Source: an uncultured bacterium
GTDB lineage: Bacteria; Omnitrophota; Gorgyraeia; Duberdicusellales; CBEUCJ01
Direction: 5' to 3'
DNA: 64,000 bases
Assembly: GCA_965541615.1 (NCBI GenBank)
Contig: CBEUCJ010000001.1
Location: forward strand, 131,754 to 195,753
In this document: piece by piece, positions 3,450 to 64,000 of the stretch
Layout of the letters: each line of letters begins with the position of its first letter
Position numbering within the stretch: position 1 is the stretch's first letter
Translations under genes and position numbers: made by a program
Notes under the pieces: model-generated
Told to the model about the DNA's origin: nothing
The model's database searches: none
The model's input: only the letters and a program-made list of their open reading frames with translations

Positions 3450-3464
3450 ACTAGGAGGCAGAAA

Positions 3465-6565: not shown

Positions 6566-6888
6566 AAGATTTTGAGGAAATTTTAGAAGAGGTAAAAAGG
6601 ACAGAAGATAAAGCAGAAGAGATCATAATTCAAGCTAAAAAGCAAGCAGAATCTGTTGTAAATTCTGCTTATTTAAAAAGAGATGAGATATTTAAAGAAT
6701 ATCAAAATAATTTTGAGAAAGAATTTGAAAAGTTTAAAGCTCAAGTAGAAAAAGAAATTGAAACTGAGATTTTAAAAATGAAGGAAGAACTTCAAGTCAA
6801 ACTAAAAAAGTTGAAAGAAAAAAGAGAAGAGTTAATAGAAAAATTAAAACAGTATTTAGTTTCTTTAATTAAAGAAAAATGGCAATAG
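6562..6888 (+). CDS. A/V-type ATPase subunit G/H (coiled-coil stator subunit)
   Basis: 108-aa charged coiled coil, first gene of the V-ATPase operon. Confidence 0.6.
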   Translation: MKDFEEILEEVKRTEDKAEEIIIQAKKQAESVVNSAYLKRDEIFKEYQNNFEKEFEKFKAQVEKEIETEILKMKEELQVKLKKLKEKREELIEKLKQYLVSLIKEKWQ

Positions 6889-8744: not shown

Positions 8745-8755
8745 GGAGGTGAACT

Positions 8756-9229
8756 ATGAGTTGGGGTATAGTTTTGGCTATATTAGGAGGAGCTTTAGCT
8801 GTAATTTTAGGGGGTATAGGTTCTTCAATTGGGGTAGGGAAAACAGGTCAAGCTTCTAATGGAGTAATGAGCGAGAATCCTGAACACTTTGTACCTTTAA
8901 TGCTATTAACAGCTTTACCTGGAACTCAAGGAGTATATGGATTTTTGATAGGATTTATTTTAGCTATGAAGTTAGGATTGTTAAAAGGAGAGTTAGCTTC
9001 TTTAGACCTTTATCAAGGAGCAGCTATGTTCTTTGCTTGTCTACCAGTAGGAGTAGCAGGTTTGGTTTCGGCTATCTATCAAGGAAGAGTATGTGCTACA
9101 GGAGTATATATGGTTTCCAAACAGCCAAAGGAATTTGTAAAGCCTTTAGTTTTGGCAGTGTTCGTAGAGTTTTATGCAGTTTTAGGATTATTAATTTCAA
9201 TATTGATTTTAAATGGAATTAAATTATGA
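8756..9229 (+). CDS. atpK: A/V-type ATPase proteolipid subunit K (c-subunit)
   Basis: 157 aa, duplicated hairpin rich in Gly/Ala. Good RBS (GGAGGTG). Confidence 0.85.
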   Translation: MSWGIVLAILGGALAVILGGIGSSIGVGKTGQASNGVMSENPEHFVPLMLLTALPGTQGVYGFLIGFILAMKLGLLKGELASLDLYQGAAMFFACLPVGVAGLVSAIYQGRVCATGVYMVSKQPKEFVKPLVLAVFVEFYAVLGLLISILILNGIKL

Positions 9230-9660
9230 AGGAGTTATCAGAGCTTTTAAACAAAATAATTTTAGAGAAAGAGAAAGAAAAAGAAGAGATTCTAAAGAAC
9301 GCTCAAATAAAAAAGGAAGAGATTTTAGCTTCTATTAGAAAAGAAGCCCAAAACTATTTTTCTGAAATATTTTTAAAAAAGAAAGAAGAGTTAAAAAAGA
9401 AAAAAAGAGAGATTTTATTTGAAGAAAAATTAAAAAATAAAAGATTGCTTTTACAAGAAAAAGAAGAATTAATAAAAGATGTTTTTAAAGAAATTAAATT
9501 ATTTTTAGAAAAAAATTCTAATTTTATCCCTAAAAAAGAAATCGTTAAGAAAGATGAGAAAATTCAGCAAAATCTTACAATAGAAGAGTTTTTAGAATTT
9601 TTAAAAGAGAATTTTAAAGGAACTCTTTTGAAGATAATAGATGATGAGTTACGATTATAG
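9226..9660 (+). CDS. atpE: A/V-type ATPase subunit E
   Basis: 144-aa Lys/Glu-rich coiled coil in the expected operon position. Confidence 0.65.
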   Translation: MKELSELLNKIILEKEKEKEEILKNAQIKKEEILASIRKEAQNYFSEIFLKKKEELKKKKREILFEEKLKNKRLLLQEKEELIKDVFKEIKLFLEKNSNFIPKKEIVKKDEKIQQNLTIEEFLEFLKENFKGTLLKIIDDELRL

Positions 9661-10306
9661 TTTTTCTTTGGGCAGAATAGGTGCATTAGAAAAGAAGTTG
9701 ATTTCTCCAGAATATTTTTATGAGATTCTAAAGTTTGATTTTCCTGAAGGTCTTTCAAAATTAAGAGATAAGTTTTTTGGTGATTTAAAAGATTTTGAAG
9801 ATATAGATATGTTTTTTTTAAAAGAAGAAGATTATCTTTATGAAAATTTGGAAGTTCTTTTAGAAGAGAAATTAAGAATATTTTTGAAGAAAGCATTCGA
9901 TTTAAATTTTATAAGTAAGAATCTAAATTTATTGAATTCTGAATATTTAAAGAAATATTTTCTTCTTTCAGTAAAATTAGAGAATGCTCTTTTAGATTTG
10001 AGAAGAAAATATTTAGGGATAAAAAAAGATTTAAACTTGCGTGATTTCCCTTCTTCTTTTATAAAAGAAGCTCAAAGTTTAATAGATGAGGGTAAAATTT
10101 ATCTTTTACATTTTTTAAAGATAAGATTTCTTTTGAGATTTTTAGAAGAATTTAAAAAAAATCTTTTAGGAGCTGAGATAGTTTTTTGGTATTTTTTTAA
10201 TAAGAAATTTCAATATGATATTTTAAAATTTATTATTATATGCAAAATGAGAAAAATTGAGATAAATAAAATAAAGAATGTTTTGGAGGTGAGTTTTGGA
10301 AAGTAA
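9641..10306 (+). CDS. atpC: A/V-type ATPase subunit C (d-like)
   Basis: Assigned by operon position between E and F. 221 aa is shorter than typical for this subunit. Confidence 0.5.
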   Translation: MMSYDYSFSLGRIGALEKKLISPEYFYEILKFDFPEGLSKLRDKFFGDLKDFEDIDMFFLKEEDYLYENLEVLLEEKLRIFLKKAFDLNFISKNLNLLNSEYLKKYFLLSVKLENALLDLRRKYLGIKKDLNLRDFPSSFIKEAQSLIDEGKIYLLHFLKIRFLLRFLEEFKKNLLGAEIVFWYFFNKKFQYDILKFIIICKMRKIEINKIKNVLEVSFGK

Positions 10307-10562
10307 GATTTTGTTTATAGGAAAAGATGAACTTGCAGAATTCTTTAAAATATTAGGATTTGAATCTTTAAAAGTAGAAGATTTAGAAAGGATAAAAGAA
10401 ATGCAAGATTTTAAGATAATTTTGTGTGAAGAAGATCTCTATGAAAAACTTTTAGAGAAATTTAAAGATAGAATAATAGTTCCTTTTTGTAATCTAGAAG
10501 AAAAAAAAGAGCTTTTAAAAGAGAATATTTATCACTTAGTAAAAGAGACAATAGGCAAATAA
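10296..10562 (+). CDS. atpF: A/V-type ATPase subunit F
   Basis: 88 aa, in the position immediately before the A subunit. Confidence 0.65.
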   Translation: MESKILFIGKDELAEFFKILGFESLKVEDLERIKEMQDFKIILCEEDLYEKLLEKFKDRIIVPFCNLEEKKELLKENIYHLVKETIGK

Positions 10563-10565
10563 AAA

Positions 10566-12311
10566 ATGAAACCTCAAATTGTAAGAGTATCAGGTCCTTT
10601 AGTGGTAGCAAAGAATTGCGTAGGAGCAAAAATGCACGAGATGGTAAAGGTGGGTGAAATAGGTTTAGTAGGTGAGATTATAGAACTAAGAGAAGATTTA
10701 GCTTTTATTCAGGTCTATGAAGATACAACAGGCATAGGTCCTGGAGAACCTGTAGTTTTGTTAAATAGACCTTTGAGTGTGGAATTAGGACCTGGTCTAT
10801 TAGGTAAGATATTCGATGGGATTCAAAGACCTTTAGATAAAATTTATTCTGAAAAAGGAGATTTTATAGAAAGAGGAATAGAAATTTTTGCTTTAGATAG
10901 AAAGAAAAAATGGAAATTCACTCCTGTTAGAAAAAAAGGAGAGTTTGTTAAAGAAGGAGATATTATAGGAGAAGTAAAAGAGACTCCTTTAATCACCCAC
11001 AAAATATTAGTTCCTCCTCAGATTGAAGGCAAAATCTGTGAAATTAAAGAAGGAGAGTTTAGTGTGGAAGAAGAAGTAGCTGTAATAGAAACTTTGAGAG
11101 GAAAAGTTCCTGTTAAACTTTACCAAATTTGGCCAGTAAGAGAAAAAAGACCTTTTAAAAAAAGGTTAATGCCTTCTGAGATTTTAGTGACTGGTCAAAG
11201 GATTTTAGATACTTTTTTTCCTTTAGCTAAAGGAGGAACAGCTTGTTGTCCAGGTCCTTTTGGAGCAGGCAAAACTGTCTTACAACATCAATTAGCAAAG
11301 TGGTCAGATGCTCAAATTATAGTTTATGTTGCTTGTGGAGAAAGAGGGAATGAGACTGCAGATTTATTATTAAGTTTTCCAGAGTTAAAAGACCCTAGGA
11401 CCAAAAGACCTTTGTTAGAAAGAACCATTATAATAGCTAACACCTCTAATATGCCAGTAGCTGCCCGTGAAGCTTCAATCTATACAGGTATTACCATTGC
11501 AGAGTATTTTAGAGACCAAGGTTACAATGTAGCTTTAATGGCAGATTCCACTTCAAGATGGGCTGAAGCTCTGAGAGAAATTTCTGGAAGGATGGAAGAG
11601 ATGCCTGGTGAAGAAGGATACCCTGCATATTTACCTGCAAGATTAGCTGAATTTTATGAGAGGGCAGGAAAAGTTATTACTTTAGGATCAGATGAGAGGA
11701 TAGGTTCAATAAGTATAATAGGGGCAGTCTCTCCTCCAGGAGGAGATTTATCAGATCCTGTAGTCCAAGGGACTTTAAAGGTAGTTAAAGCTTTTTGGGG
11801 TTTAGATGACAAGTTAGCTAACGCTAGACACTTTCCAGCTGTAAATTGGTTAATAAGCTATTCTTTATATAATCAGCTTTTAGATGAGTTTAAAAAAGAA
11901 AAAATAGCTGAAGATTTTGAAATGCTAAGAATTGAAGCTATGAAGATTTTAGAAGAGGAAGAAGAATTAAAAGAAATAGCCAGATTAGTAGGATTAGAAG
12001 CTTTATCTAATTATGATAGATTGAAGTTAGAAATAGCTAGATCTTTAAGAGAAGATTTCTTGCATCAGAATGCTTTTGATGAAACAGATACCTATACTTC
12101 TTTAAAAAAACAGTATTTAATGCTCAAATTAATTATGAAATTTTATGAAGATGCAAAAAAAGCTTTGGAAAAAGGAAAAGATTTAGATAAAGTAGTAAAA
12201 GTCTCTTCAAGATTTATGATTTCAAAAGCAAAGTTTGTAAGAGAAGAAGAGTTTGAAGAGTTTTTTAAAGAAGTTTCAAAAAAAATAGAATTAGAATTAG
12301 ATGAAATTTAA
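10566..12311 (+). CDS. atpA: A/V-type ATPase catalytic subunit A
   Basis: P-loop GPFGAGKT, 581 aa including the non-homologous insert region. Confidence 0.95.
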
Positions 12312-13686
12312 AGAATACCAAACAGTCTCACACATCCAGGGTCCTTTATTAATAGTAAGGAAAATAGAAGAAGTAAAGTATGCAGAGTTAGCTGAAATAA
12401 TTTTATCCAATGGCCAAAAGCGTTATGGAAAAGTATTAGACGTTTCAGAAGATTTAGCAGTAGTTCAAGTTTTTGAAGGCACTCAAGGATTAGATACAGA
12501 AAATTCTAAAATAAGGTTTTTAGGTAAATCTGAAACATTTGGAGTAAGTAAAGAGATTTTAGGAAGAGTGTTTACTGGAAGAGGAGCACCTCGTGACGGA
12601 TTACCTTTACCTCCAGCTGAAGAATTTTTGGATATAAATGGTTCACCTATAAATCCTGTAGCAAGAAGTTATCCTAATGAGTTCATTCAAACAGGAATAT
12701 CAGCAATAGATGGAATGAATCCTTTAGTAAGAGGACAAAAGCTTCCTATATTTTCAGGCTCAGGTTTGCCTCACAATAGATTGTGTGCTCAAATTGCCAG
12801 ACAAGCAAAGGTTTTGGGTAAAGAAGAAAAATTTGCAGTAGTATTTGGAGCTATGGGAATAACTTTTGAAGAAGCAGAATTTTTCATTCAAGATTTTAAA
12901 AAGACAGGAGCTTTAGAGAGATCAGTTTTATTTATAAATTTAGCAGATGAACCTGTAATTGAGAGAATTTCTGTACCTAGATTTAGTTTAACTTGTGCTG
13001 AGTATTTAGCTTTTAAATTGGATATGCATGTTTTAGTAATTCTGATAGATATGACTTTTTACTGTGAAGCTTTGAGAGAGATTTCATCAGCTAGGAAGGA
13101 AGTTCCAGGAAGAAGAGGTTATCCAGGTTACATGTATACAGATTTAGCTACTATTTATGAAAGGGCAGGAAGAATAAAGGGTAAAAAGGGTTCTGTAACT
13201 TTGTTACCTATTTTAACCATGCCTGATGATGATAAAACTCATCCTATACCAGATTTAACAGGCTACATTACAGAAGGACAGATAATTTTATCACGTGCTT
13301 TACATAAAAAAGGAATTTATCCTCCTATAGATGTTTTACCTTCTTTATCTAGATTAAAAGATAAAGGAATCGGTGAAAATAAAACTCGTAAAGATCACAG
13401 TTATGTTTTAAATCAGTTGTTCGCTTTATACGCTAAAGGACAGGAAGTTAGAGAATTAGCTTTAATTTTGGGAAGAGAAGCTTTAACAGATTTAGATAAA
13501 ATTTATTTAGAATTTGCTGATAGATTTGAAGCTGAGTTTGTAAAGCAAGGAGAATTTGAAGAAAGAGATGTTATTAAGACTTTAGATTTAGGTTGGAAAT
13601 TATTGAGAATGTTTCCAAAAGAAGAATTAACAAGAATAAAGCCAGAAATTTTAGAAGAATATTATGAGATTAAAAGTAAATCCTAA
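12301..13686 (+). CDS. atpB: A/V-type ATPase subunit B
   Basis: 461 aa with the conserved B-subunit core (SGSGLPHN... [13 protein letters not shown]). Confidence 0.95.
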
Positions 13687-14275
13687 CAGAATGGAATTAT
13701 TGAGACTAAAAAAGAGAAGAATTTTAGCTCAAAGAGGATATGATCTATTACAAGACAAATTAGAAGAATTAATAGCAGAGTTTCACAGGATTAATAGAAA
13801 AGCAAAGCTTTTATTAAAAAAATGGGAAGATATTTTTAATCAATTTATAGAAGAGTTAATTTTTTTAAGGGCTCAGAGTAAAAAAGAAAATATAAAAAAG
13901 ATTTTGGAAAATTTGGATTTATTAAAAGTAGAAATAGAATTCAAAAGAATTTTAAATTTAAAAATTCCAAAGTTTAAGATAAAAGATTCTTTAGAATTTA
14001 AATATCCTTTAGAAGAAACTCTGCCTCAATTTGATAAAGTTTATATTTTGAGAAAGGAGTTTTTAGAAGTTTTTTTTCAGGTGATAGAAATTTACTTATC
14101 TTTAAAACTCATTTCTTTAGAAATCGTAAAAACAAGAAGGAGAGTAAATGCTCTTCAATACATTTTGATTCCTACAATTGAAGAAAGTATAAAATATATT
14201 GAAGAGAAACTATCAGAATTTGAGAGAGAATTTCTGATGAGAATATTGAGGATAAAAGAAGTGATAAGAAAATGA
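13664..14275 (+). CDS. atpD: A/V-type ATPase subunit D
   Basis: 203-aa coiled coil, last conserved gene of the operon. Confidence 0.75.
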
Positions 14276-52881: not shown

Positions 52882-53723
52882 TTTTTGAGCATGTTAGGTA
52901 ATTCTTTAAATATCTGAAAAAAATAAGGATTAGTAAGAGCAAAATATAAAGATCTGGTTATTTCGTAAGGAAAGCTTTTTAAGAAAAATAAGAAAGATTT
53001 TTTCTTATGATATTTTAATATAACATATAATCTGTTTCTAAAGCACAAATATTTTCTTAATTTTTTAGATATAGGAAAGCCTCCTCCATAATGAAAACAG
53101 ATAAGTTGAGGAAAAAAATTAGTCTTAATATTATATTTTTTCATTTTCATATATAAATCTAATTCTTCAAAAAGAAAAAATATTTTATTATCGAAGACTT
53201 CTCCTTTTTCTTTTATTTTTTCTAAAATTTCCTTTTTAAAGATAGCACAACATAAATTAGGAGCATCTACAAAAAAGGAAGAAGAAAACTTTTTTGGAGA
53301 TTGGTTTTTTCCAATATCATATATTCTATAGAAAGAGCTTATTTTCAATCCACAAGAAAAGATTTTTTTATTTTTTTGATTGATAATTTTAGGAGCAATG
53401 ACAAAATCTATTTTATTTTGAGATATTATTTTTTCTAATTCAAAGAAAAAATTTTTCTCTAAAAAAGCATCACTATCCATGAACATAATAAAATCTCCAT
53501 TTGCTTTTTTAATACCTTCATTGCGAAAAAAACAAGCTCCTTTATTTTCTTTAAATGGAATTATTTTGAAATTATTCGATAATTTTAAATTTTTTTTCAA
53601 AGATATTTTCCCAACCAGAAGAATTTCTATTTTATAAGATTTTTTTTGGTAAAATGATGAAAGAAAATTTAATGTTGAAGGGATTAAATCATTTCCTATA
53701 GGGATAATTACAGATATTTTCAT
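52878..53723 (-). CDS. GT2-family glycosyltransferase
   Basis: N-terminal ISVIIP and a DxD motif (DSDAF). Confidence 0.75.
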   Translation of the reverse strand: MKISVIIPIGNDLIPSTLNFLSSFYQKKSYKIEILLVGKISLKKNLKLSNNFKIIPFKENKGACFFRNEGIKKANGDFIMFMDSDAFLEKNFFFELEKIISQNKIDFVIAPKIINQKNKKIFSCGLKISSFYRIYDIGKNQSPKKFSSSFFVDAPNLCCAIFKKEILEKIKEKGEVFDNKIFFLFEELDLYMKMKKYNIKTNFFPQLICFHYGGGFPISKKLRKYLCFRNRLYVILKYHKKKSFLFFLKSFPYEITRSLYFALTNPYFFQIFKELPNMLKK

Positions 53724-54296
53724 GGAAGTTTATTATACATAAGTTTTAAAAACAAACAAACTTTTTAAGTAAGATATTGTAAAATATCTTATATAAATTC
53801 TTTAATGACCTAAACAAAAAAGACTATACCCTTCTAAAAGAAAGGAAATGGCAGGTTTGTGAAAAAGTTAATTTAATTCTGAAGGAATTTACTCCTAAAA
53901 AGCACTTAAGTAAGGATATTTTGCTGAAGAAAGTATCTTCACAAGATATGAAAAGTAAAGCAAGTAATAAAAGAATTATTAGAATATACTCTAAGTAAGG
54001 AATTAGAAGCTATGATCAAAAGCAAAAAGATACCAACATACAAAAAGTAGCGTTAAATATTTAATTAGGCAGTATAATTAATCAATTTTTGAAGAAAAAA
54101 ACTAATTGATAATTATTTTTCCTGATAAAGATATTTTCTCAAGATAAAAAATAAGGAATTGAGTTAAATATATTTTATCTGTAGCGATGAGAAATATATA
54201 GGAAATACCTTAAAAGAAAATTATCAGAAACATAGAAAAAAGAAGAATTTTTTAATAAAATTAGCTTTAATAAAATTGTTTTAAAGGAGGTGCGGT

Positions 54297-54590
54297 ATGT
54301 GTAGAGAGGAGATAATAGAAAAAATTTTAGTACCCAATGAAGAGATAATTTCATTTAAGGAGATTGATGGAGAGATCGTTTTTTTTCACAAAGAAGAGAG
54401 AAATCTTTATGAATTGAATGAGACAGCAAATTTTATTTGGAAAGAGTTAATTAAAGGAAAGAAACCTAAAGATGTTATAAGAAGTATGCAAAAAAAGTTT
54501 AAAGAAATAAAAAAAGAAGTTTTAGAAAAAGATGTTTTGGATTTTATAAAAAAATTAATTGACAAAAAAATATTTTTGGTCAAAAAATGA
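54297..54590 (+). CDS. PqqD-family protein (RiPP recognition element, RRE)
   Basis: 97 aa with the PqqD signature (LYELNETANFIWKEL...G...P.DVI..M...F....E.LEKDVLDFIKKLIDKKI). GGAGGTG RBS. Confidence 0.8.
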   Translation: MCREEIIEKILVPNEEIISFKEIDGEIVFFHKEERNLYELNETANFIWKELIKGKKPKDVIRSMQKKFKEIKKEVLEKDVLDFIKKLIDKKIFLVKK

Positions 54591-54674
54591 ATAAAAAATT
54601 ACATAAGGATGTAACTGGAGATGTAAACATTGTTATATAATTAAGAATTCGATAAAAGGTATTAACTTTTTCAA

Positions 54675-55880
54675 ATGGATCGAGAGTTTGAAGTAATCAA
54701 ATACTTAACAAAAGAAGTAGTATATGGAAGATATAAAGAACATTTGATAAATTTTTTAACTTCTACTAAGTTAGAGTGGGAAAAGTTAAAGTTCATGTTA
54801 CTTTACAATGAGTTAGCTTCTTTTTTATATATAATATTAAAAAACAATTCCTTATCTCTTCCTTTTGATTTTCTTTCTTTTCTTAAGAATGTCTATTATA
54901 GAGACTTATTTAGATATATTGTATTATTTAATGAGTTATTGACTATACTAGATGCGGCTAATAAGAAGTCAATTCTTATCATACCCATAAAAGGTTTTTC
55001 TATCGGTGAAGAGTATTACAAAAAATTCGGTTTTAGACCTTTGAGTGACATAGATTTATTAATTAAAGAGGAAGAATTAGAAAAAGGAATAAAACTTTTA
55101 TGCGAATTAGGATATGAGAAAAATTTTTTTGGAGCTAAAGAAAGTTATTGGCGTAATAAACAATGTCATATAAACTTTCTAAAAAGAAATAAAAACGGAT
55201 CTATTCTAGTAGAACTTCATTGGTCTTTAGATTTTAAAAGAGACAATAAATATGCCCTTTCTTGTTTATGGAAAAGATTGAAGAAAGTAAAAATAAAAGA
55301 TAAAGAAATTTTTGTTATGGCACCAGAGGATACTTTATTTTCTCTAGCACTTCATCAAAGAAGATTTGGGAAAGTATTTAATCTCAAATATATTTGTGAT
55401 GTAGGCATTATCTTAGAAAAGGAAAAACTTAATTGGGAATATATAATCGAGGCTGCTTATCGAGAAAGAATTAAAGCTTCTTTGTATTTTTTACTATATC
55501 AGACACAGATTATTTTAGATAAAGATCTCAGTAAGTATTTAAAAAAACTAAGAATTAGTTCTTGGCATAAAAGACTAATTTCTTGTGTTATTAGAAAATA
55601 TACAAAATCTTTTATAACTCCTTTTAATCTAAAATATGTCTATACAATTTGTCATTTTCTTCTCTACGACAATATACTCTATCCTATCAAATACGTTTTT
55701 ACTGTTCCTCAGGAACAATTTGCAAAATTTTATCATCTTCCTTTTTATACACCAACTACAGAGAGACTTTATAAACTAAGATATTTATATATTCCTTATA
55801 AAACTGTTAAGGAATTGTTGGATAGGAAAATCTTTAAACGGAATTTTTTAGAAAAATTTAATAGCTGTTTATTTTTGTAA
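54675..55880 (+). CDS. Uncharacterised nucleotidyltransferase (PF14907/NTP_transf_5-like)
   Basis: 401 aa with a GFRPLSDIDLLI nucleotidyltransferase motif. This family is recurrent in RiPP cassettes. Confidence 0.6.
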   Translation: MDREFEVIKYLTKEVVYGRYKEHLINFLTSTKLEWEKLKFMLLYNELASFLYIILKNNSLSLPFDFLSFLKNVYYRDLFRYIVLFNELLTILDAANKKSILIIPIKGFSIGEEYYKKFGFRPLSDIDLLIKEEELEKGIKLLCELGYEKNFFGAKESYWRNKQCHINFLKRNKNGSILVELHWSLDFKRDNKYALSCLWKRLKKVKIKDKEIFVMAPEDTLFSLALHQRRFGKVFNLKYICDVGIILEKEKLNWEYIIEAAYRERIKASLYFLLYQTQIILDKDLSKYLKKLRISSWHKRLISCVIRKYTKSFITPFNLKYVYTICHFLLYDNILYPIKYVFTVPQEQFAKFYHLPFYTPTTERLYKLRYLYIPYKTVKELLDRKIFKRNFLEKFNSCLFL

Positions 55881-56608
55881 GAAGAAGGAATATAAATATA
55901 AATATTCTCTCTTTTCTTTACTACTTCTAAACCTTTCTTAATTAAATGTGATCCTACGCCTCTAGCACGATATAATAGTTTTACATAAGGACCTAGAAAT
56001 AAAATATTATGAGAATTTTTATCTTTTAATATCCAAAGTTTACCTATAGGGATTTTCTCTATTACAGCTACAAGTTTATAGAGAATTACCCAAGAGGGAT
56101 TAGGAAAAAAAATATTATAAAAACTTCTAAATAAAATTTCTTCCTCTTCTTTTCTAACTAAAATATACTTCACCTTCTTTAAAGGAAATAATTTTTTTAA
56201 TAATTTTCTAAAAAAATTAGAAGAATAAAGAATTTCTGTAAATAAATAAGTCGATTCTTTTAAAAAAGAAAAGAAGTTTACAAAAATATAATATAAAAAA
56301 GTATTTTCAAATTTTAAATATTTCAACTTATCTTTTCTATATACGCCTATCACTTTTCCCAAGATATCCTTTGCTTTAACTTTTTCTTTTTTCCAAAAAT
56401 TGAAATCTCCTTTGGTATAAATAATATTATTGTTTTTATCTATTTTTATAACTCTATGGCATATGTACTGCCTTTTTTTTCTAAAAATAATAATATCTCG
56501 AAGAAAAATCTGTGATAAGTTAGTTTTTTTGACTAAAATTTTTTCTTGATTTCTTATAGTAGGATACATACTTTGACCTCTTGAGAGTAAATAAAAGATT
56601 CTTCTCAT
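55796..56608 (-). CDS. Signal peptidase I (S26, Ser/His SipW-like)-GNAT acetyltransferase fusion protein
   Basis: N-terminal S26 boxes (GQSMYPTI, YICHRVIKI with His in place of the bacterial Lys, TKGDFN). C-terminal GNAT motif A (YRARGVGSHLIKKGLE). Confidence 0.55.
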   Translation of the reverse strand: MRRIFYLLSRGQSMYPTIRNQEKILVKKTNLSQIFLRDIIIFRKKRQYICHRVIKIDKNNNIIYTKGDFNFWKKEKVKAKDILGKVIGVYRKDKLKYLKFENTFLYYIFVNFFSFLKESTYLFTEILYSSNFFRKLLKKLFPLKKVKYILVRKEEEEILFRSFYNIFFPNPSWVILYKLVAVIEKIPIGKLWILKDKNSHNILFLGPYVKLLYRARGVGSHLIKKGLEVVKKRENIYIYIPSSYKNKQLLNFSKKFRLKIFLSNNSLTVL

Positions 56609-57389
56609 TTAATAATTTTTAATTAATTCCAAAATTATTAAGAGTGAGAGTTTCAAAAAATCTTTGTTTTATATTCGGGATGACTTCCATAGAGATTTTC
56701 ACCAAAAAATTAATCAAAAGATATTTTCATCTTCTATAAGTACCCCATATTTTTATCCCTTTCTACTAAAACTTCAAATTCAGATATATCATTAACTAAT
56801 AAAGCAGTCAATAGTTTTGTTATTACTTCCATAAGAAAAATAGCAATTAGCTCAGATTTTGTTTTATTGTGATGTTTTTATTTTTTAAACAAATTTTGGA
56901 TTAGAGAGTTTATAGTGAAACATTGTTTCTTTATAAAATATCAAGAAGATAAAAAGCATATTCTCTCCTTAAGAGACGAGTATTTTTTAATTGAAGAGAT
57001 GAAAAAACCAAGACTAAGATAGGCTGATATATTCTCATACTGCCACAAATAGAATATCAGAACAAAATTAAAAGATAAAAAAGTTGCAGAGAATTAAAAA
57101 AATATAGAGTTTTTGAATATAATCAAATCGATGTAAAAAAGATTCAAAAATATTCCTAACCTTTGGGTTTATATGGAAGGATTTGATATTTCCAAATGTT
57201 AAATAGCTTTTGGAGAATTATCTGCAAGAGATAGTTTCTACGTTATACTGTAAAATTTTTACATAATCATTTATTTCAAAACAAAAGTAGAAGCATTTGA
57301 GCATTCTTAATCAGAGGAAAATATCTATTCTCTTTAAAAGAAAAAGGAGTAAAATATAGAAAATAGTTTTTTAAAAACATTAAAAATTT

Positions 57390-57473
57390 ATGGATAATGT
57401 AGTGTTAAGAACCTGCTCATTTTCAACTTTAGAGATTATTTTCTATTTTTCAATTTTGTTTTTAGAAAGTTAA
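57390..57473 (+). CDS. Candidate 27-aa small ORF immediately upstream of, and coupled to, the radical SAM gene
   Basis: ATG...TAA ends 1 nt before the rSAM ATG and encodes MDNVVLRTCSFSTLEIIFYFSILFLES. No clear SD sequence. Confidence 0.2.
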   Translation: MDNVVLRTCSFSTLEIIFYFSILFLES

Positions 57474-57474
57474 T

Positions 57475-58560
57475 ATGAGAAAAAGAGATAAAAATATCCT
57501 TTTTACCCCTTTTCTTATCCAATGGCATATTACCGAGAGGTGTAATTGGAACTGTTTGCACTGTTATAGGAAGAGAAATTCATGTGTAGATTTACCCTTA
57601 AGTGATTTGAAGTATATTCTTCATCAGTGTTTGGGATTATTGGAAGTCTTAGATGTAAAAGATGTGCGAATAAATATTGGAGGAGGGGAGCCGTTTTTAA
57701 GAGAAGATATTTGGGATTTCATAAAGATATTAAAGAAATACAAAGAGATAAAATTGTATATTATGACAAATGGGTCTTTAATTTCTAAAGATGTAGCAAG
57801 AGCACTTTCAAAGATTAAAACTCTTAAAGGAGTTCAGGTAAGTATGGAAGGGTTAAAAGAAACTAATGATAAAATAAGAGGAAAAGGGAGTTTTGAGAAA
57901 ATAGAAAGAGCCATTCGAACTCTAGTCAAGTATAATATTTTTACTAGAGTTTCAGTGACTCTTACAAAGTTAAATTTAGAAGAAATAGAACCCTTGGTAT
58001 CATATCTTAAGGAGTTAGGAGTAAATAATGTCGGTATAAGACGGTTTGTTCCCGTAGGAAAAGGAGAAATTTTAAAAAAGTATATGCTTTCACCATTGGA
58101 GACGAGGGATTTTTATCTATTTAGAGAAGAACTTATGGATAAATATTGTGATAAAAATTTTACAATTTCTTATGGATGTGAAGATGGACTTCTTGTTCAA
58201 GAGGTTGAGAAAATAAGTAAGAAAAGGAGGAAATATCTATACTATACAAATTGTGCAGTATTAAGAAGGAGGGCTCTTACTATTCTTGATAATGGAGATA
58301 TACTTTTGTGTAGGAGGCTTCCTATAAAGATTGGCAATGTTTTTGAAAAAAACTTAGAAGAGATTTTCTTTTTTTCAACACTTGTTCAAAAAATGAGTAA
58401 TTGGAGGAATTTTCTTTCGTATTGTGAAGATTGTCCTTTTTTTTCTTATTGTTTAGGAGGAGCAAGATGTATTGCCTATGGATTCTTTAAAAAAATAGAT
58501 GCACCAGATCCTCAATGTTGGAGGCTCTTTACAGTATTACCTAATTCTGGTATAATTTAA
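57475..58560 (+). CDS. Radical SAM/SPASM-domain peptide-modifying enzyme
   Basis: CxxxCxxC (CNWNCLHC), GGGEPF, and a C-terminal SPASM Cys cluster (CEDCPFFSYCLGGARC). Confidence 0.85.
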   Translation: MRKRDKNILFTPFLIQWHITERCNWNCLHCYRKRNSCVDLPLSDLKYILHQCLGLLEVLDVKDVRINIGGGEPFLREDIWDFIKILKKYKEIKLYIMTNGSLISKDVARALSKIKTLKGVQVSMEGLKETNDKIRGKGSFEKIERAIRTLVKYNIFTRVSVTLTKLNLEEIEPLVSYLKELGVNNVGIRRFVPVGKGEILKKYMLSPLETRDFYLFREELMDKYCDKNFTISYGCEDGLLVQEVEKISKKRRKYLYYTNCAVLRRRALTILDNGDILLCRRLPIKIGNVFEKNLEEIFFFSTLVQKMSNWRNFLSYCEDCPFFSYCLGGARCIAYGFFKKIDAPDPQCWRLFTVLPNSGII

Positions 58561-58578
58561 CAAAAAAGGAGTAAATAA

Positions 58579-58731
58579 GTGAAAAAGAAATTCTTAATTA
58601 ATTTTCAAGAAAGTAAGAAGAAAGATGCCATTCAAAAAAAAGTTTATCAGAAACCAAAGATAAAAAGAGTTGTCTACAAGAAGAAGAAGCTTCCTGTAGC
58701 TATAGCACAGAGTTGCGCCCTTTGTGTATAG
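58579..58731 (+). CDS. Candidate RiPP precursor peptide (50 aa; not in the ORF track, which stops at 60 aa)
   Basis: GTG start 7 nt after a GGAG (AAAAGGAG) RBS. Encodes MKKKFLINFQESKKKDAIQKKVYQKPKIKRVVYKKKKLPVAIAQSCALCV: a Lys-rich leader and a Cys/Ser-containing C-terminal core. Lies between the rSAM/SPASM gene and the HprK-like kinase. Confidence 0.5.
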   Translation: MKKKFLINFQESKKKDAIQKKVYQKPKIKRVVYKKKKLPVAIAQSCALCV

Positions 58732-58744
58732 TTATTTTTAATAA

Positions 58745-59635
58745 ATGCCCTTTTCCTACCAAATAGTCCTTAATAATTTCTCTCTTTCCTTGCATATACA
58801 AGCTGAAAGTTATGTTATTCAGATAATCAGGAAATTCTTACTATATATTTCTCCATGGATTAGAATAGAGAAAATAAAAGGGTACGATAAGAATTTTCAG
58901 ATTTATTTAAAGCCTCTTTCAAAGCCATCTGTAAGACTTCTAGGTGGAGGAAACAAAATTGTGAAGGAAGAAATTAGAAATAAAGATGAGTTTATAATAT
59001 GGTCATCATGGGATGGCTCTTTTTTAAAGACCGATCTTAGGAAAAAAATAGCATATGGAGAATTAGGGAAAAATGAAGTAATAGGTATTTCTATCTTAAG
59101 ACGTTGGTTTGAGACTTTTGTATTCTTAAATAATTGTATTTTTTTACATTCAGCTAATATAAAAGTTAAAAATACATTGAGTACTCTTCTTATAATAGGC
59201 GACTCTGGAAGTGGAAAGAGCACCTTATCTTCTCTTATAAGAAATTATTTCCATTTTAAAGTCATAGATGATGATATAACAGGGTTATTGGATTTTAAAA
59301 AGATTTACTCTTTTTCAATTAGATTTATTTCTTCTTTGGGAAATTTTTTAGAAGTAGAGGCTCTAAAGTTAGAACCAATAGGAATTCCCAGGTTTATTCT
59401 ATTTGTAGAGAGAAAGAAGACAATGTCTAAATTGTGCAGATTAACTTCTAAAGAAGCTTTTAAAAGAGTATGTTTTTTTGCTGAATTTTCCTCTTTTGAT
59501 AATAAAATGTTTGAGCATAAGGTGAAGATTCTAGATAAATTAATAAATCAATGTAATTGTTTTTTGTTAATAAATGGTAAAGATATTTCTAAAGATCCTT
59601 CAAAATTAATCTCACTTTTTTCTTATATTATTTGA
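58745..59635 (+). CDS. HprK-related P-loop kinase (HPr kinase C-domain-like)
   Basis: FLHSANIKVKNTLSTLLIIGDSGSGKSTLS...FKVIDDDITGL parallels the HprK P-loop (GDSGVGKSE) and the following ADD segment. Confidence 0.65.
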   Translation: MPFSYQIVLNNFSLSLHIQAESYVIQIIRKFLLYISPWIRIEKIKGYDKNFQIYLKPLSKPSVRLLGGGNKIVKEEIRNKDEFIIWSSWDGSFLKTDLRKKIAYGELGKNEVIGISILRRWFETFVFLNNCIFLHSANIKVKNTLSTLLIIGDSGSGKSTLSSLIRNYFHFKVIDDDITGLLDFKKIYSFSIRFISSLGNFLEVEALKLEPIGIPRFILFVERKKTMSKLCRLTSKEAFKRVCFFAEFSSFDNKMFEHKVKILDKLINQCNCFLLINGKDISKDPSKLISLFSYII

Positions 59636-60584
59636 CATTTAAAAACTTATCCCATGGGATATGGAGTCTACCCATTATACATTCACCTTTTTCATCTAAT
59701 GTAGGCAACAATAAACATCGAAATTTGCAATAAGGAAGAAGATAGCAATTTTTACACACATCTTCTATTTTTTCTCTATGTTTAAAAGGATATTTTGTGG
59801 TTTTTTTCTTTGTACACGAACTTAAAGATCCATCTGTGTCAATAACCGTTACTCCTTCTGTACAGAAATAGGAACAACCTATCATAGGAATTAATTTATA
59901 TCTTTGAGGAACTAATAAGAAAGAAAAATATCTAACTAAAGAATTTTTACCAAAATAATGATTAAAATCATAGAGTAGTCTATTTAAAATGTCGAAAAAA
60001 TCGTGATGGGGCAAATAATCTTTTCTGTTTTTCGAAAAAACAGGAATTTCTCTTTCCCAAAATATTTCATCTATTAGTTCTTCCTTTAAGAGTTTAATTA
60101 CCAATGAGATTAACCAGTTATATGATGTTTTTCGCAGTAAAGTAACTACTACTTTTATTTTAATATTTTCTTTCTTAACATATCTAAGATATTTAAAAGC
60201 TTCTTTTTGATTTCTCCAAAAATTTCTATACTTGTCTAGAGAAATGGTTAAAGTTAAATGGTTACGTTGTATGAAATCTATACGTTCTTCAATTTTATCT
60301 TTTCTAAAGAAAAAATCAGGATTAGAGGTAATTTCTATATCTACGTCAGGAAAGTTTTTAGAGACGATACTTGCTATTTCATTTAATTTATGAATATCTA
60401 TAGTAAAAGGTTCTCCACCGTGGATAATAACTTTTTGGATTTCTTCTTTTTTAATTTTTTTTATAGATTCCATTAATACGGTCGGAGTTATCATTCTCTT
60501 GGGTGTTTTTTTTACATAACAATGAGGGCATCTAAAAGGGCAGTAATTGGTAGTTTCAATGACTAAAGTTTTTGGAAATGTCAT
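59628..60584 (-). CDS. Radical SAM/SPASM-domain enzyme (second maturase)
   Basis: CxxxCxxC (CPFRCPHC), GGEPF, and a C-terminal Cys cluster (CKNCYLLPYCKFRC). Confidence 0.8.
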   Translation of the reverse strand: MTFPKTLVIETTNYCPFRCPHCYVKKTPKRMITPTVLMESIKKIKKEEIQKVIIHGGEPFTIDIHKLNEIASIVSKNFPDVDIEITSNPDFFFRKDKIEERIDFIQRNHLTLTISLDKYRNFWRNQKEAFKYLRYVKKENIKIKVVVTLLRKTSYNWLISLVIKLLKEELIDEIFWEREIPVFSKNRKDYLPHHDFFDILNRLLYDFNHYFGKNSLVRYFSFLLVPQRYKLIPMIGCSYFCTEGVTVIDTDGSLSSCTKKKTTKYPFKHREKIEDVCKNCYLLPYCKFRCLLLPTLDEKGECIMGRLHIPWDKFLNVK

Positions 60585-61573
60585 TTCTCATTGCTCATTG
60601 CCCTTTCAGCTTCTAATAATATACAATTTACTTCTTTACTTTCTTCAACAGTAAACATTGAAGGAGTTTTAAGAATTACAGGGATTTCTAAGATGATTGA
60701 TACTATTTTAGTTGGAATATTTTTAAATCTAGATGGAATCCATAATTTTGTATATTCTCGAGGTAATAATTCTTTAGCTATTCTCGAATAAGAAAAATTT
60801 TTATACTCTTCTTTGATTAAATGAGAGAGCTCATGTTTTGATAAAATTTTTTTAATCAAGTAGAGTTTTTTATTAAGTCGTATTAATTTTTTTAACATTA
60901 TTGAAGAAGGATGGAAAGCGTATGTCTTGTAAACTATATGATCATCTTCTTTTATATTTATATTCCGGAACACTCCTAATGTGGAGAACCTGTATTTGGG
61001 CGATGTTTTGAAAAATATAGGGAAATATATTTTATCTTCTGCCCCACAATGTTTGTAGATTTCTAAATATGCATTTTTTATCCTTTCTCTTTCCTCAGAA
61101 TTCTTAAATATTTTATTAAAGTTTATTACCTTTGGAGAAACGAATAAAATAATATCTCTTATTTTGTTATCTTTATGTAATGTGATAGATTTAATTGTAC
61201 GGAATTTTAGAAATTGTAATTTGTCTTCTCTTACTGCCATATAGTAGATGTCATCATTGGGACGATAAGGTAAGGCTTTGTAGGAAATGGAAGGAAAAAG
61301 CAGACGGTTATTTTTTATTTTTCCATAAAGAAGAATACTTTCTTTGAATGATAGATATTTAGCATTGTTGAGCAAAGTTTTTATTTTATTTAAAGATATT
61401 TCTCCATTATCTATCAGGTCTGAATATTTTGCTTTAAGTAGATATATAGACGTATAATAGGGAATTCTTTTTTCTGAGAGAAGCCAAAAATAAAGAGCAG
61501 CTAATACCGTGAGACAAATTATTAGTAGGAATGAGATTTTTGTTTTTTTAGAGAATTTCAATATGTGAGTCAT
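60581..61573 (-). CDS. Hypothetical membrane-anchored protein
   Basis: 330 aa with an N-terminal TM helix and no recognisable domain. Overlaps both flanking genes. Confidence 0.4.
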   Translation of the reverse strand: MTHILKFSKKTKISFLLIICLTVLAALYFWLLSEKRIPYYTSIYLLKAKYSDLIDNGEISLNKIKTLLNNAKYLSFKESILLYGKIKNNRLLFPSISYKALPYRPNDDIYYMAVREDKLQFLKFRTIKSITLHKDNKIRDIILFVSPKVINFNKIFKNSEERERIKNAYLEIYKHCGAEDKIYFPIFFKTSPKYRFSTLGVFRNINIKEDDHIVYKTYAFHPSSIMLKKLIRLNKKLYLIKKILSKHELSHLIKEEYKNFSYSRIAKELLPREYTKLWIPSRFKNIPTKIVSIILEIPVILKTPSMFTVEESKEVNCILLEAERAMSNEK

Positions 61574-63059
61574 TATTCACCTCCTCTTTTATTATTTCTT
61601 CCATATTTTTAAATACCACTTCCTTATTTTCAAAAAAAATATTGCTTCCTACTTTAAGAATATTTTTTACTTTTCCTTGAGAAATATTTTTTAAACTCTT
61701 ATTTCTTAATTTTCCTATTATAGCAAAGTACTCATCGCTCTCCTTTTCTTTAAATACTCTTATTATATTTTCAAAGTTTTTTCGAAGAAAATCCCTATAA
61801 TAATTATTCCATAAAAAGGAAAGATTTCTAACTAATAAAATATACTTAATATTTTTTTCTTCTACAAAAAATAATTTAGAAATTTCCACCCTTTTAACTA
61901 ATATCACTTTTTTATTTAAGAGTTTTATGGACTTAATTACTTTATCTATAGGTATTGTATCAGGTATAAAACCTTTGTAGTTTCCACATGGTAAGAGAAT
62001 TCTATCTTTAAATTCGTTCTTAATTTTGTTAAATGTATTAAAGTCACCCGTTATTTCTATTCTATCTTGCATTACTCTTATACATATATATTCTCTGTTT
62101 AAAAGATAATTTCCGACTAATAGAAATCCTCCAATAAATGGAGTATTTTTGTTTGTAAAAAAATATAATCCTATATCAGATATTCTTTTATTTAATGGGA
62201 AAAAAGGAGCTTTATTGAACCAAAAAAAGACGGCACGGATGATATAGAGGAGGACAATAATTTTAACTTCAAGCATATCTGTGCTTGCTATACTCCAGTT
62301 AGGTATGAAGCAGGGGGGTAGGTATAGGAAACTTTCAAGAGTAAAAGTGCCTCTTTTGTTTTTATGGATAAAGAATACGCTATGGTTATCTTCGTTTATG
62401 CAAGACGATTTTAAGCGGGTTACTCTATGGATAGTTACTATAGGAAGAAAATCGGGAGAGATTTTCATTAAATTACATAAGAAAGCACTATTTTTTAGAT
62501 AATTTATCCTGACTTTATTTTTTTCTATAATAACATTTATAAAAGAGTCTATAAATATTTCAAAAATTCCATCTTTTTTATTATGATTTACTAAAGAAAC
62601 TCTATATTTTCTTATTCTGTCTATAGTTTTTATGAAGAGCTCTTGAATTGTCTCTTTTTCTAAAAATAATATTTTATAGAGAATATCACCTGTGGGGGTA
62701 AGAACAAGTAAAGGATACAATAGATTTAAATTAAAAGGCTTTTCCGTATTTATTTTTATACTTTTGAAGAGAAAAACCTTTTCCTTATTATATATTTCTA
62801 TCCAAACACCAAAGTTAAAGAAGACTGATCTATCTTTTTCTTCTGATGTAGTATGAAAATTTTCGAAATTAATAATTTCTCGTCTTGAGAAATAATTTAT
62901 GAGCTCTTCGTTCTTATAAGAAATCATATAAGAAATCAACGGAATGATATGTGTTTTCTCCTTTTCGAAATACAAAGATTTTTCCAAAAAGTTTTTGTAA
63001 TCAGATAAATTCTCTTTATTTTTATAATCTTCCAAAAATCTTCTAATTAAAGTCGACAT
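61548..63059 (-). CDS. Hypothetical protein (503 aa)
   Basis: Long ORF in operon with the neighbouring genes. No recognisable motif. Confidence 0.4.
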   Translation of the reverse strand: MSTLIRRFLEDYKNKENLSDYKNFLEKSLYFEKEKTHIIPLISYMISYKNEELINYFSRREIINFENFHTTSEEKDRSVFFNFGVWIEIYNKEKVFLFKSIKINTEKPFNLNLLYPLLVLTPTGDILYKILFLEKETIQELFIKTIDRIRKYRVSLVNHNKKDGIFEIFIDSFINVIIEKNKVRINYLKNSAFLCNLMKISPDFLPIVTIHRVTRLKSSCINEDNHSVFFIHKNKRGTFTLESFLYLPPCFIPNWSIASTDMLEVKIIVLLYIIRAVFFWFNKAPFFPLNKRISDIGLYFFTNKNTPFIGGFLLVGNYLLNREYICIRVMQDRIEITGDFNTFNKIKNEFKDRILLPCGNYKGFIPDTIPIDKVIKSIKLLNKKVILVKRVEISKLFFVEEKNIKYILLVRNLSFLWNNYYRDFLRKNFENIIRVFKEKESDEYFAIIGKLRNKSLKNISQGKVKNILKVGSNIFFENKEVVFKNMEEIIKEEVNNDSHIEIL

Positions 63060-64000
63060 TTTTTAAATTATTAAAGAATAATTTTGCTAGCTTTAGAGAG
63101 TATAGATAATCTTCAGAAAAAATTCTATCCTTAGGATACATAAAAGGTATAAATCCATTTTTAAGAATTATTCCACTAAGGTTAAGGATAACTTTCTTAT
63201 TTTTCATTTCTATTAATGAAAGTTTCTCCAAACATGCTAAATGATCTTCTAGTAATTGAAAAAGAGAAGGAGGCAACATAGCTTCATAACACCAATATAA
63301 GAGAAGTCGGAATCTAGATACCTCTAAGGAGATATTTTTTTCTTTTTTAAAAAGAATATTCTCTAAACCACGTTTTTTTATATTTAAGAAATACTGAGGG
63401 GGATTAGGGTTTACTTTATTTAGATCATAATAACGTGTTTCTGCAAGAGGTCCTAAACCTATTTGGATAGTTTTTCCATTGAAAATTTCTTTATTAATCT
63501 TTATTTCCTCATAGGGAAAACTTTTTGTCGTTTTTTTAAAAGTAAATCTAATTCCTGCTCCTCCCTTTCTTATGAACAAATTATTTTTTATAAAGTTATT
63601 GCTCACTATGAAAGAGAAAAGAATCCTTTTTATAATGTCTTCTAAGAAGGAGTATTTTGGAGAGTAGATTTTGTTCATTCTTTTTTTAGAACTGTAGTTA
63701 TAAAGAGTAATAAAAATTTCTTTATTATCTTTGAAGTTTTTTAGGAAAGATATAAGATTTATTAAATCTGTTAAATAATTAAAATTAACTTCAGGATAGT
63801 CTATAATAAGATCAATATTTAAACTCAAATCTAACTCTAATACATTTTTTATGCCTTCTAGTACTGTATCCTTTGTATAACGTCTTTCCATTTTTTTTAA
63901 AATACTATTTCTAAGACTTTCTACCCCTAGAGAGATATAATTGAAACCAATATCCTTCAAATTCTTAAGGAAATTTTTGTCTATGCCATATTTATCAGGA
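63043..64000 (-). CDS. Radical SAM-family protein, C-terminal portion (N-terminus beyond the window end)
   Basis: The frame stays open to the window edge. The ...GFNYISLGVESLRNSILKKMERRYT... block is typical of the radical SAM core downstream of the CxxxCxxC loop, which would lie outside the window. Confidence 0.55.
   Translation of the reverse strand, partial: PDKYGIDKNFLKNLKDIGFNYISLGVESLRNSILKKMERRYTKDTVLEGIKNVLELDLSLNIDLIIDYPEVNFNYLTDLINLISFLKNFKDNKEIFITLYNYSSKKRMNKIYSPKYSFLEDIIKRILFSFIVSNNFIKNNLFIRKGGAGIRFTFKKTTKSFPYEEIKINKEIFNGKTIQIGLGPLAETRYYDLNKVNPNPPQYFLNIKKRGLENILFKKEKNISLEVSRFRLLLYWCYEAMLPPSLFQLLEDHLACLEKLSLIEMKNKKVILNLSGIILKNGFIPFMYPKDRIFSEDYLYSLKLAKLFFNNLKNVDFN

Follow-up and report, generated by a model that had tools for sequence, protein, structure and literature searches.

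The question raised by this locus is what substrate is served by a gene cassette in which a PqqD-type RiPP recognition element (RRE), a radical S-adenosylmethionine (rSAM) enzyme with a SPASM domain, and an HprK-like kinase are encoded close together. The locus lies in a 64,000-nucleotide stretch of DNA (hereafter, the window; contig CBEUCJ010000001.1, positions 131,754 to 195,753) from an uncultured bacterium of the phylum Omnitrophota, and the candidate substrate is the product of a 50-amino-acid open reading frame (ORF) located at 58579-58731 (+). We found that this ORF is very likely a real, uncalled gene for the precursor of a peptide that is made on the ribosome and modified after translation (RiPP). 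This assignment is based on a conserved leader, a hypervariable Cys-rich core, a strict co-occurrence with the RRE and enzyme genes, and a strong Shine-Dalgarno (SD) sequence of its own. The more specific reading, namely, that the ORF product is the precursor (A-peptide) in a RiPP pathway that combines an rSAM module with a module of the linear polyphosphorylated peptides (LPPs; Popov et al., Nat Commun 2026, PMC13381572), is considered probable.

The translation of 58579-58731 (+) is MKKKFLINFQESKKKDAIQKKVYQKPKIKRVVYKKKKLPVAIAQSCALCV, which has 50 residues and the C-terminal end SCALCV. The ORF starts with GTG and ends with TAG, and the SD sequence AAAAGGAG is found at 58564-58571 (+), 7 nt 5′ of the start codon. 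Because an in-frame TAA (58576-58578) directly precedes the GTG and no in-frame ATG is present in the ORF, this GTG is the sole plausible start. The ORF takes up the 184-bp gap that separates the rSAM/SPASM gene (57475-58560) from the HprK-like gene (58745-59635). In 20,000 dinucleotide-preserving shuffles of this gap, an ORF of at least 50 codons appeared on the + strand in 0.3% of cases and on either strand in 1.7%; the window has a GC content of 28%, with stop trinucleotides at 7.6% of positions. The initial annotation, which was made from the sequence alone, had described an unannotated, GTG-initiated ORF of 50 amino acids that follows a ribosome binding site, lies between an rSAM/SPASM gene and an HprK-like gene, and encodes two Cys at CxxC-like spacing. 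All of these points hold: the frame and the SD sequence are as described, the Cys pair is C46-A-L-C49, and the two flanking genes are identified by Radical_SAM and SPASM matches and by family-level HprK matches, respectively. As for the lack of annotation, an exact look-up in the gene-position index found no recorded gene with this peptide as its product (look-ups of the rSAM protein and of P0001 in the same index also returned nothing), and when 1.84 billion representative proteins were searched exhaustively with a profile, the peptide was not among the matches. Neighboring proteins from the same 339-kb NCBI contig are present in that collection. When 10 peptides of the family were scanned at E ≤ 10, Pfam and NCBIfam gave noise and no family, and the only PDB matches of the peptide profile were spurious ones to designed "Pizza" proteins. 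We also looked for an alternative precursor and found no other motif-bearing ORF anywhere in the window; the two large gaps of the cassette (56609-57474, 866 bp; 53724-54296, 573 bp) have no tblastx conservation with other cassettes.

Homologs of the rSAM/SPASM enzyme with 45-56% identity were found in metagenome bins, and the closest named ones are from Omnitrophica/Omnitrophota and candidate phyla radiation (CPR) metagenome-assembled genomes (MAGs). In the loci L004/L005, L006, and L007/L008, the gene order is PqqD, rSAM/SPASM, an ORF of 51-54 amino acids, and the HprK-like gene, and the peptide gene is located directly 5′ of the HprK-like gene in five cassettes. With the exception of L011, every cassette found that combines PqqD with a close rSAM homolog (approximately 42-56% identity) has an ORF of 49-62 amino acids with a strong SD sequence. 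A scan of 80 further metagenome loci recovered related peptides, differently placed, in four more cassettes. The order is peptide, a 311-amino-acid HprK-family protein, PqqD, and rSAM in L014, and peptide, two PqqD genes, rSAM, HprK-like, and GT4 in L016; the peptide gene is directly 5′ of the rSAM gene in L017, and the match in L032 is looser. An exhaustive hmmsearch added four more members of the same architecture (P0131, P0132, P0134, and P0135), and a word-indexed protein search with the peptide profile returned the seeds and one new sequence only. AGGAG or GGAGG is present 5′ of the start in all eight locus homologs, at a spacing of 5-9 nt in seven; in L016 the SD sequence is immediately next to the first ATG, and 6 nt separate it from a second ATG in the same frame. 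Because the loci span 28-49% GC, the basic N-terminus of the peptides is not merely a product of AT bias. In a tblastn matrix, PqqD and the HprK-like gene occur only alongside rSAM homologs above approximately 42% identity. In approximately 70 loci of a more distant rSAM subfamily (35-43% identity, with CPR bins as the source of many), both PqqD and the motif peptide are absent, and all loci in which this peptide was found either have PqqD or are too short to judge.

The peptides share a basic N-terminus, a Y-x-[K/R]-P-x-[I/M/L]-K-x-V motif, and a C-terminus rich in Cys and small residues, and an alignment of 14 sequences shows almost no variation at the Y, K, and P of this motif. In the window, the motif is Y23-Q-K-P-K-I-K-R-V31 (58645-58671, +), which is proposed to bind the RRE, and the conserved Ser and the Cys-containing end of the core form S45-C-A-L-C-V50 (58711-58728, +). 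A Ser is found 20 to 27 residues after the Tyr of the motif (Y+20 to Y+27) in 12 of the 13 members, and in 11 of those 12 it is 1-5 residues ahead of the first Cys. In the window it is at Y+22; seven members have it exactly at Y+25 according to the family table, or eight with P0127, which was read by eye. Cys is the only constant feature of the core, with two to nine per member and two in the window; the core is otherwise hypervariable. The leaders of P0124 and P0127 are identical, and their cores differ by an A(S/T)S substitution and a seven-residue deletion. The initial annotation had suggested that syntenic cassettes be searched for a similarly placed small ORF with a conserved C-terminal Cys motif, and had viewed the peptide as a long charged leader followed by a short hydrophobic core. 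The homologous small ORF is present, as are the layout of leader and core and the Cys-rich C-terminus. However, the tail is variable and the conserved part is the leader motif, and the hydrophobic core is particular to the window, whereas the trait of the family is a core of small residues rich in Cys.

The putative binding partner of the leader is encoded at 54297-54590 (+), a discrete PqqD-type RRE (PF05402 at 1.3e-13). Its best PDB match is the lasso B1 protein TbiB1 (6.7e-7), followed by TfuB1, also a lasso B1 protein, and by 9x90_B and 9x8z_B, two 2026 entries named PqqD-family chaperones, and its best NCBIfam matches are lasso PqqD chaperones. Discrete lasso-type RREs bind a [Y/W]xxPx[L/V/I/F/A] leader motif, and the YxxP motif is experimentally essential for binding between LppB and LppA and for lasso RREs (PMC13381572). 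The window peptide has this pattern in Y23-Q-K-P-K-I28, together with a B1-like RRE. In L016, a tandem, overlapping pair of PqqD-type RRE genes (3419-3965) is located ahead of the rSAM gene, and these two may represent one RRE per enzyme module.

The rSAM/SPASM peptide maturase encoded at 57475-58560 (+) matches Radical_SAM at 5.6e-22 and SPASM at 5e-6. It has no fused RRE, since the CxxxCxxC motif is already found at residues 23-30, and the eight invariant Cys in its C-terminal half indicate a full SPASM domain. The best PDB relatives are SkfB (a sactisynthase), anSME, CteB (the SCIFF thioether maturase), SuiB, and PqqE. The best NCBIfam neighbors are the ACGX, GeoRSP (131 bits), SbtM, MftC, and ScmE maturases, all of which are far under their cutoffs. 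The product of 58745-59635 (+) is an HprK-superfamily P-loop kinase (ScmC/HprK_rel_A-like; LppK-like), for which the assignment is based on family-level matches and motifs. All seven members of this family match TIGR04352 (HprK_rel_A; best 1.6e-11), and five of the seven match TIGR04249 (ScmC; best 3.4e-5), as do five of the seven for TIGR04355 (hpr-ser); the LH[SA]A...GxSGxGK[ST]...DD motifs are present. A word-indexed protein search with the kinase as query returned the kinase itself only.

Two further genes complete the set that resembles LPP clusters. An LppN-like NTP_transf_5 nucleotidyltransferase is encoded at 54675-55880 (+; PF14907 at 6.9e-35), and a signal peptidase I (SpI)-like domain of the archaeal type, fused to a GNAT-like domain, is encoded at 55796-56608 (-; TIGR02228 at 1e-12). 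The SpI-GNAT protein scores 48.2 bits for TIGR02228 against an equivalog cutoff of 51.85, and its orthologs in L007, L053, and L013 score 51.5, 54.2, and 72 bits. The SMxP, HRV, and KGD motifs are conserved in this SpI-like peptidase, and because the TIGR02228 match begins at residue 11, there is no N-terminal membrane anchor ahead of the catalytic domain. The GNAT matches of this protein are weak, and a PDB search likewise yielded weak GNAT matches only. These two convergent ORFs have an 85-bp overlap of their 3′ ends (55796-55880).

The known system with the greatest overlap in parts is that of the LPPs (LppA/K/B/S/N/D), as defined by Popov et al. (PMC13381572). In that system, the precursor has the consensus YxxPxVLxHQxIxFETxxS, LppK polyphosphorylates Ser3 of a core that starts with A-Q-S just after the cleavage site, and LppS cleaves the leader only upon presentation by LppB (PMC13381572). 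LPP clusters are located within capsular-polysaccharide loci, and the family was reported to be restricted to Bacillota (PMC13381572). In the supplementary tables, these genes are represented by the domain models PqqD, NTP_transf_5, TIGR02228, TIGR02203, and TIGR04249/TIGR04352/TIGR04355 (PMC13381572). The window has a discrete PqqD-type RRE, a TIGR02228 homolog (orthologs up to 72 bits), an HprK-like kinase whose family matches the LPP-kinase models, and an NTP_transf_5 protein of the same Pfam family as the putative NTP transferase of LPPs. The peptide has a YxxPx[V/I] leader motif, and its A-Q-S-C corresponds to the A-Q-S-N of LppA, with the Ser near the junction of leader and core. Moreover, the cassette is beside polysaccharide and glycosyltransferase genes. 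Thus the earlier suggestion that the Ser is a possible target of the HprK-like kinase gains support from the conservation of this residue and from the use of the same kinase, RRE, and peptidase set by the experimentally characterized LPP family, although the chemistry itself is inferred. The idea of an rSAM-modified RiPP precursor is likewise supported by the conservation, except that the closest system is an LPP system plus rSAM/SPASM rather than a plain sactipeptide or lasso peptide system.

Differences from LPPs concern the core, which is tiny and Cys-rich in the window and has 45 amino acids in LPPs, the fusion of the SpI domain to a GNAT-like domain, and the one to three rSAM/SPASM enzymes found in the cassettes described here. 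The strings "Radical", "SPASM", and "Fer4" do not occur in the available part of the LPP domain tables. Because no Radical or SPASM domain is listed in that part of the co-occurrence tables, the rSAM enzyme appears to be a specific addition that arrives with the Cys-rich cores. In addition, the closest homologs are named as Omnitrophica/Omnitrophota and CPR MAGs, whereas LPPs were reported from Bacillota only.

Several observations weigh against the joint rSAM and LPP-type reading. The rest of the LPP consensus (VLxHQxIxFET) is missing from the window peptide, the spacing between Tyr and Ser is 22 in the window (20-27 in the family) rather than 18 as in LPPs, and no MsbA-like ABC exporter was found among the window ORFs of 41339-64000, with a more distant gene possible past the window end. 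By itself, the HprK-like protein of the window gives weak matches (E of 0.003-0.03), and the match of the window SpI-like protein is just under the curated cutoff. The closest cassette, L004, has neither SpI nor NTP_transf_5 in the 17 kb available for it, so this module is not universal and the invariant core of the family is limited to the RRE, rSAM/SPASM, peptide, and HprK-like kinase genes. In the PqqD and rSAM locus L011 (2.3 kb), no peptide ORF separates the rSAM gene from the gene that follows it, and the L017 peptide lacks the Ser. The sole close relative, L009 (a 99% strain), has identical DNA, so it affords no dN/dS comparison. Finally, the Cys cross-links and the Ser phosphorylation are proposed wholly by analogy. 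Given the differences in consensus, exporter, and phylum, the cassette is not an LPP system proper and would join an LPP-type system to a sactipeptide/ranthipeptide-like one.

The likeness to sactipeptide and ranthipeptide systems is that a Cys-containing precursor adjoins an rSAM/SPASM maturase in which the set of auxiliary-cluster Cys is complete, that this precursor has an N-terminal leader and a C-terminal core with Cys, and that the closest solved relatives of the enzyme include SkfB and CteB. However, the window has a separate, lasso-like RRE instead of one fused to the enzyme, the leader has a YxxP motif, kinase, NTP-transferase, and SpI genes are added, and no family cutoff is reached. 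For phosphorylated and phosphoglycosylated lasso peptides, the HprK-like kinase and NTP_transf_5 pair of paeninodin and pseudomycoidin acts on Ser. The window shares with them a B1-type RRE (best PDB match TbiB1) and a YxxPxL-type leader motif, but its candidate Ser is not C-terminal and rSAM enzymes are present. A lasso peptide as such was rejected, with no match to a macrolactam synthetase (C; Asn-synthase-like) or a B2 cysteine protease (transglutaminase-like) among the ORFs of 41-64 kb.

Three more systems were considered and rejected. SynChlorMet has a similar parts list, namely, a PqqD relative (ScmD), two rSAM/SPASM enzymes (ScmE/F), and the HprK-like ScmC, but the scores are 30.4 for ScmD (cutoff 100), 112.9 for ScmE (cutoff 400), and 72 for ScmF (cutoff 400), and ScmC is weak. 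To our knowledge, the SynChlorMet (SCM) precursor is listed as unidentified. The targets of the ACGX system are Cys-rich peptides of approximately 50 amino acids. For this system (TIGR04340), the rSAM enzyme scores 153.9 bits against a cutoff of 400, no NCBIfam peptide model was matched at E ≤ 10, and the window core SCALCV has two Cys and no ACGX repeat. For mycofactocin, the MftC score is 119.6 against a cutoff of 265, and the window peptide ends in -LCV rather than -VY. Literature searches on SynChlorMet, on ACGX, and on HPr kinase with PqqD and radical SAM returned nothing relevant, and no paper joining HprK, radical SAM, and RiPP was found. In the literature that we found, the combination of LPP enzymes and radical-SAM enzymes in one cassette is described nowhere; the general logic of an RRE-dependent RiPP with tailoring by rSAM and kinase enzymes is familiar.

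Among the alternatives, the one that retains the most weight, although it is unlikely, is that the peptide is a substrate of the rSAM/SPASM enzyme only, as in sactipeptides or ranthipeptides, and that the HprK-like, NTP_transf_5, and SpI proteins act on something else or in the neighboring polysaccharide pathway. Pointing this way are the PqqD gene, which touches or runs into the start of the rSAM gene in L004, L006, and L007, the absence of SpI and NTP_transf_5 from L004, and the glycosyltransferase genes that border the cluster. However, the HprK-like gene is present in every cassette of adequate length and directly 3′ of the peptide gene in five, a conserved Ser keeps a fixed distance from the RRE motif, and the same kinase families act on peptides in the LPP and paeninodin systems. 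The converse, an LPP-type linear phosphopeptide with an rSAM/SPASM enzyme that acts elsewhere and Cys that serve in metal binding or disulfides, is improbable. It is consistent with the presence of the LPP core enzyme set and with distant rSAM homologs that occur without PqqD or peptide, but the peptide and rSAM genes are adjacent or close in all cassettes, and PqqD and the peptide co-occur with precisely the rSAM subfamily above approximately 42% identity.

We give about as little credence to an rSAM/SPASM enzyme that performs non-thioether chemistry at the C-terminus (MftC-like oxidative decarboxylation and cross-linking of the hydrophobic C-terminal residue, SbtM-like thiooxazole formation, or anSME-like Cys oxidation) and leads to a cofactor-like or metal-binding product instead of a cross-linked peptide. 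The best family and structure matches include SbtM, MftC, and anSME, and many members end in V/F/Y/W/L/M/I directly after a Cys; however, every match is far under its family cutoff, and the C-termini are not uniform, with GE, S, A, and C ends as well. That the ORF is no precursor at all, but a chance ORF or a small basic structural or nucleic-acid-binding protein, is very improbable: the gene is very Lys-rich in a genome of 28% GC, is called by no source, and matches no Pfam or NCBIfam family, but its position, SD sequence, leader motif, and Cys-rich tail are kept in loci of 33-49% GC, the core is hypervariable, and the co-occurrence with RRE, rSAM, and kinase genes is strict.

Under the preferred reading of a precursor shared by rSAM and LPP-type enzymes, the pathway can be outlined as follows. 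The PqqD-type RRE would bind Y23-x-x-P26-x-I28, in the manner of lasso B1 proteins and LppB, and would then present the peptide to the enzymes. The rSAM/SPASM enzyme would modify the Cys-containing core (C46 and C49), likely by Cys-centered radical chemistry. This chemistry is the best guess because of the closest structures (SkfB, CteB, anSME, SuiB, and PqqE) and the NCBIfam neighbors: SkfB and CteB form thioethers, anSME oxidizes Cys, and ACGX and SbtM are maturases of Cys-rich peptides. The most likely products of this step would be thioether cross-links of the sactionine or ranthionine type, between which the assignment is uncertain, and one or more extra rSAM enzymes may add further changes. 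By analogy with LppK, the HprK-like kinase would phosphorylate, and possibly polyphosphorylate, S45 beside the first Cys, and NTP_transf_5 may decorate the phosphate, following the precedent of paeninodin and pseudomycoidin. The soluble SpI-like protease would cut a few residues N-terminal of the Ser, at about V-A-I-A|Q-S, and the N-terminus formed in this way may be acetylated by the fused GNAT domain. The predicted product is a cross-linked phosphopeptide of approximately 7-9 residues that would be made beside a polysaccharide locus.

With regard to expression, a sigma-70-like promoter sequence (TTTACA, 17 nt, TATAAT, with a TG extension) is found at 58528-58556 (+), within the 3′ end of the rSAM gene. 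It matches the consensus at 11 of 12 positions and is the best in 53700-60700, but it is a consensus match only and the total number of such sites is not above that in shuffles. An RpoD-type sigma factor is encoded in the window, and the precursor gene may have its own promoter at this site. An RNA hairpin with a U-rich tail (58696-58735, +; -15.4 kcal/mol, z = -3.8) overlaps the 3′ end of the ORF and is a possible attenuator. It is significant locally but was not kept in the five other loci compared, so it was dropped as evidence for the family and given little weight.

The cassette extends 3′ of the kinase gene. A second, accessory radical SAM enzyme is encoded at 59628-60584 (-; Radical_SAM at 2.9e-13, Fer4_12), convergent with the kinase gene, and a 52%-identical ortholog occupies the same position in L004. 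The interval 60581-64000 (-) contains genes for two unknown proteins of 330 and 503 amino acids (60581-63059) and a third rSAM gene, all possibly part of the same cluster. The 330-amino-acid protein has an N-terminal hydrophobic segment. Neither unknown has a Pfam or NCBIfam family, but both have orthologs with 31-32% identity at the same positions in L004/L005 and appear to be conserved components of an extended cluster. The third rSAM gene of the window, whose frame is open to the window end, had no tblastn match, and a further Radical_SAM gene is present in the same order in L004/L005. The 866-bp stretch at 56609-57474, which separates the divergently oriented peptidase and rSAM genes, contains no ORF of more than 43 amino acids and no Rfam match, and it may be a regulatory stretch or a decayed gene; over the whole window, Rfam identified two tRNAs only. 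Located 5′ of the cassette are genes for glycosyltransferases, a Wzy_C protein, a WecA-like transferase, and an epimerase, with MreB, MreC, PBP2, and RodA farther away. Elsewhere, the window is ordinary bacterial chromosome (RpoD, DnaG, IleRS, and V/A-type ATPase), in which the V/A-type ATPase operon (I, A, and B subunits) occupies 6879-14275 (+); its presence together with an RpoD-type sigma factor is in keeping with an uncultured lineage.

Other arrangements were observed among the loci of this enzyme family. A hybrid cassette in L013 (679-5262) has the order rSAM/SPASM (44% identity), PqqD, a 743-amino-acid protein, a second PqqD, and a stand-alone TIGR02228 protease (72 bits); the 743-amino-acid protein resembles YcaO-type proteins by eye only, and no peptide ORF was recognized. 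In distant rSAM/SPASM loci without PqqD, which are of CPR/Patescibacteria type, ORFs of 80-104 amino acids are found at L001 1080-1322 (-), L023 177-491 (-), and L058 539-793 (+). Each has a membrane anchor at the N-terminus and a C-terminus rich in Cys, Gly, and Ser, and the S/R-A-D-[VI]-P motif is conserved among them; they may be substrates of a second class that the same enzyme family recruits in a different way.

Orthologous GT4 genes (28-71% identity) adjoin the rSAM/SPASM genes of this family in many loci, some of them without PqqD, including L007 (7860-9083), L006 (10320-11573), L016 (6106-7347), L032 (2748-3992), and also L082, L023, L040, L026, L031, L033, and L076. In L006 and L007, the GT4 gene is followed by a gene for a Phosphodiest-family enzyme, and both loci have a Wzy_C protein, 3′ of the cassette in L006 and 5′ in L007. 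The recurrent GT4 neighbor hints that the cassette products are glycosylated; no GT4 ortholog was found in the window at E 1e-8.

A bolder extension, which we regard as unlikely, is that the family is a new RiPP class outside Bacillota in which one lasso-type RRE serves both the radical-SAM cross-linking of Cys and the HprK-type (poly)phosphorylation of the adjacent Ser on a core of 7-25 residues. The phosphate would then be an attachment point for sugars from the flanking NTP-transferase, GT4, phosphodiesterase, and Wzy-like genes, and the peptide would be a cross-linked primer or anchor of a glycopolymer rather than a free antibiotic. If this were true, the missing precursor type for cassettes with ScmC, PqqD, and rSAM/SPASM ("SynChlorMet-like") would be supplied.

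Taken as the precursor gene that it very likely is, the ORF at 58579-58731 identifies a gene missed by the callers and with it the probable substrate of a multi-enzyme cassette. The joint reading would extend the LPP-type logic of an RRE, an HprK kinase, an NTP-transferase, and a signal-peptidase-like leader protease beyond Bacillota, and suggests that rSAM/SPASM chemistry on a Cys-rich mini-core is compatible with such a module. At approximately eight residues in the window, the predicted products would be very short and hence readily testable. For other ScmC/PqqD/rSAM cassettes, the family offers a pattern by which precursors may be sought, namely, a basic N-terminus, YxKPx[IML]Kx[VI], and S[GC] with a Cys-rich tail approximately 20-27 residues farther on.

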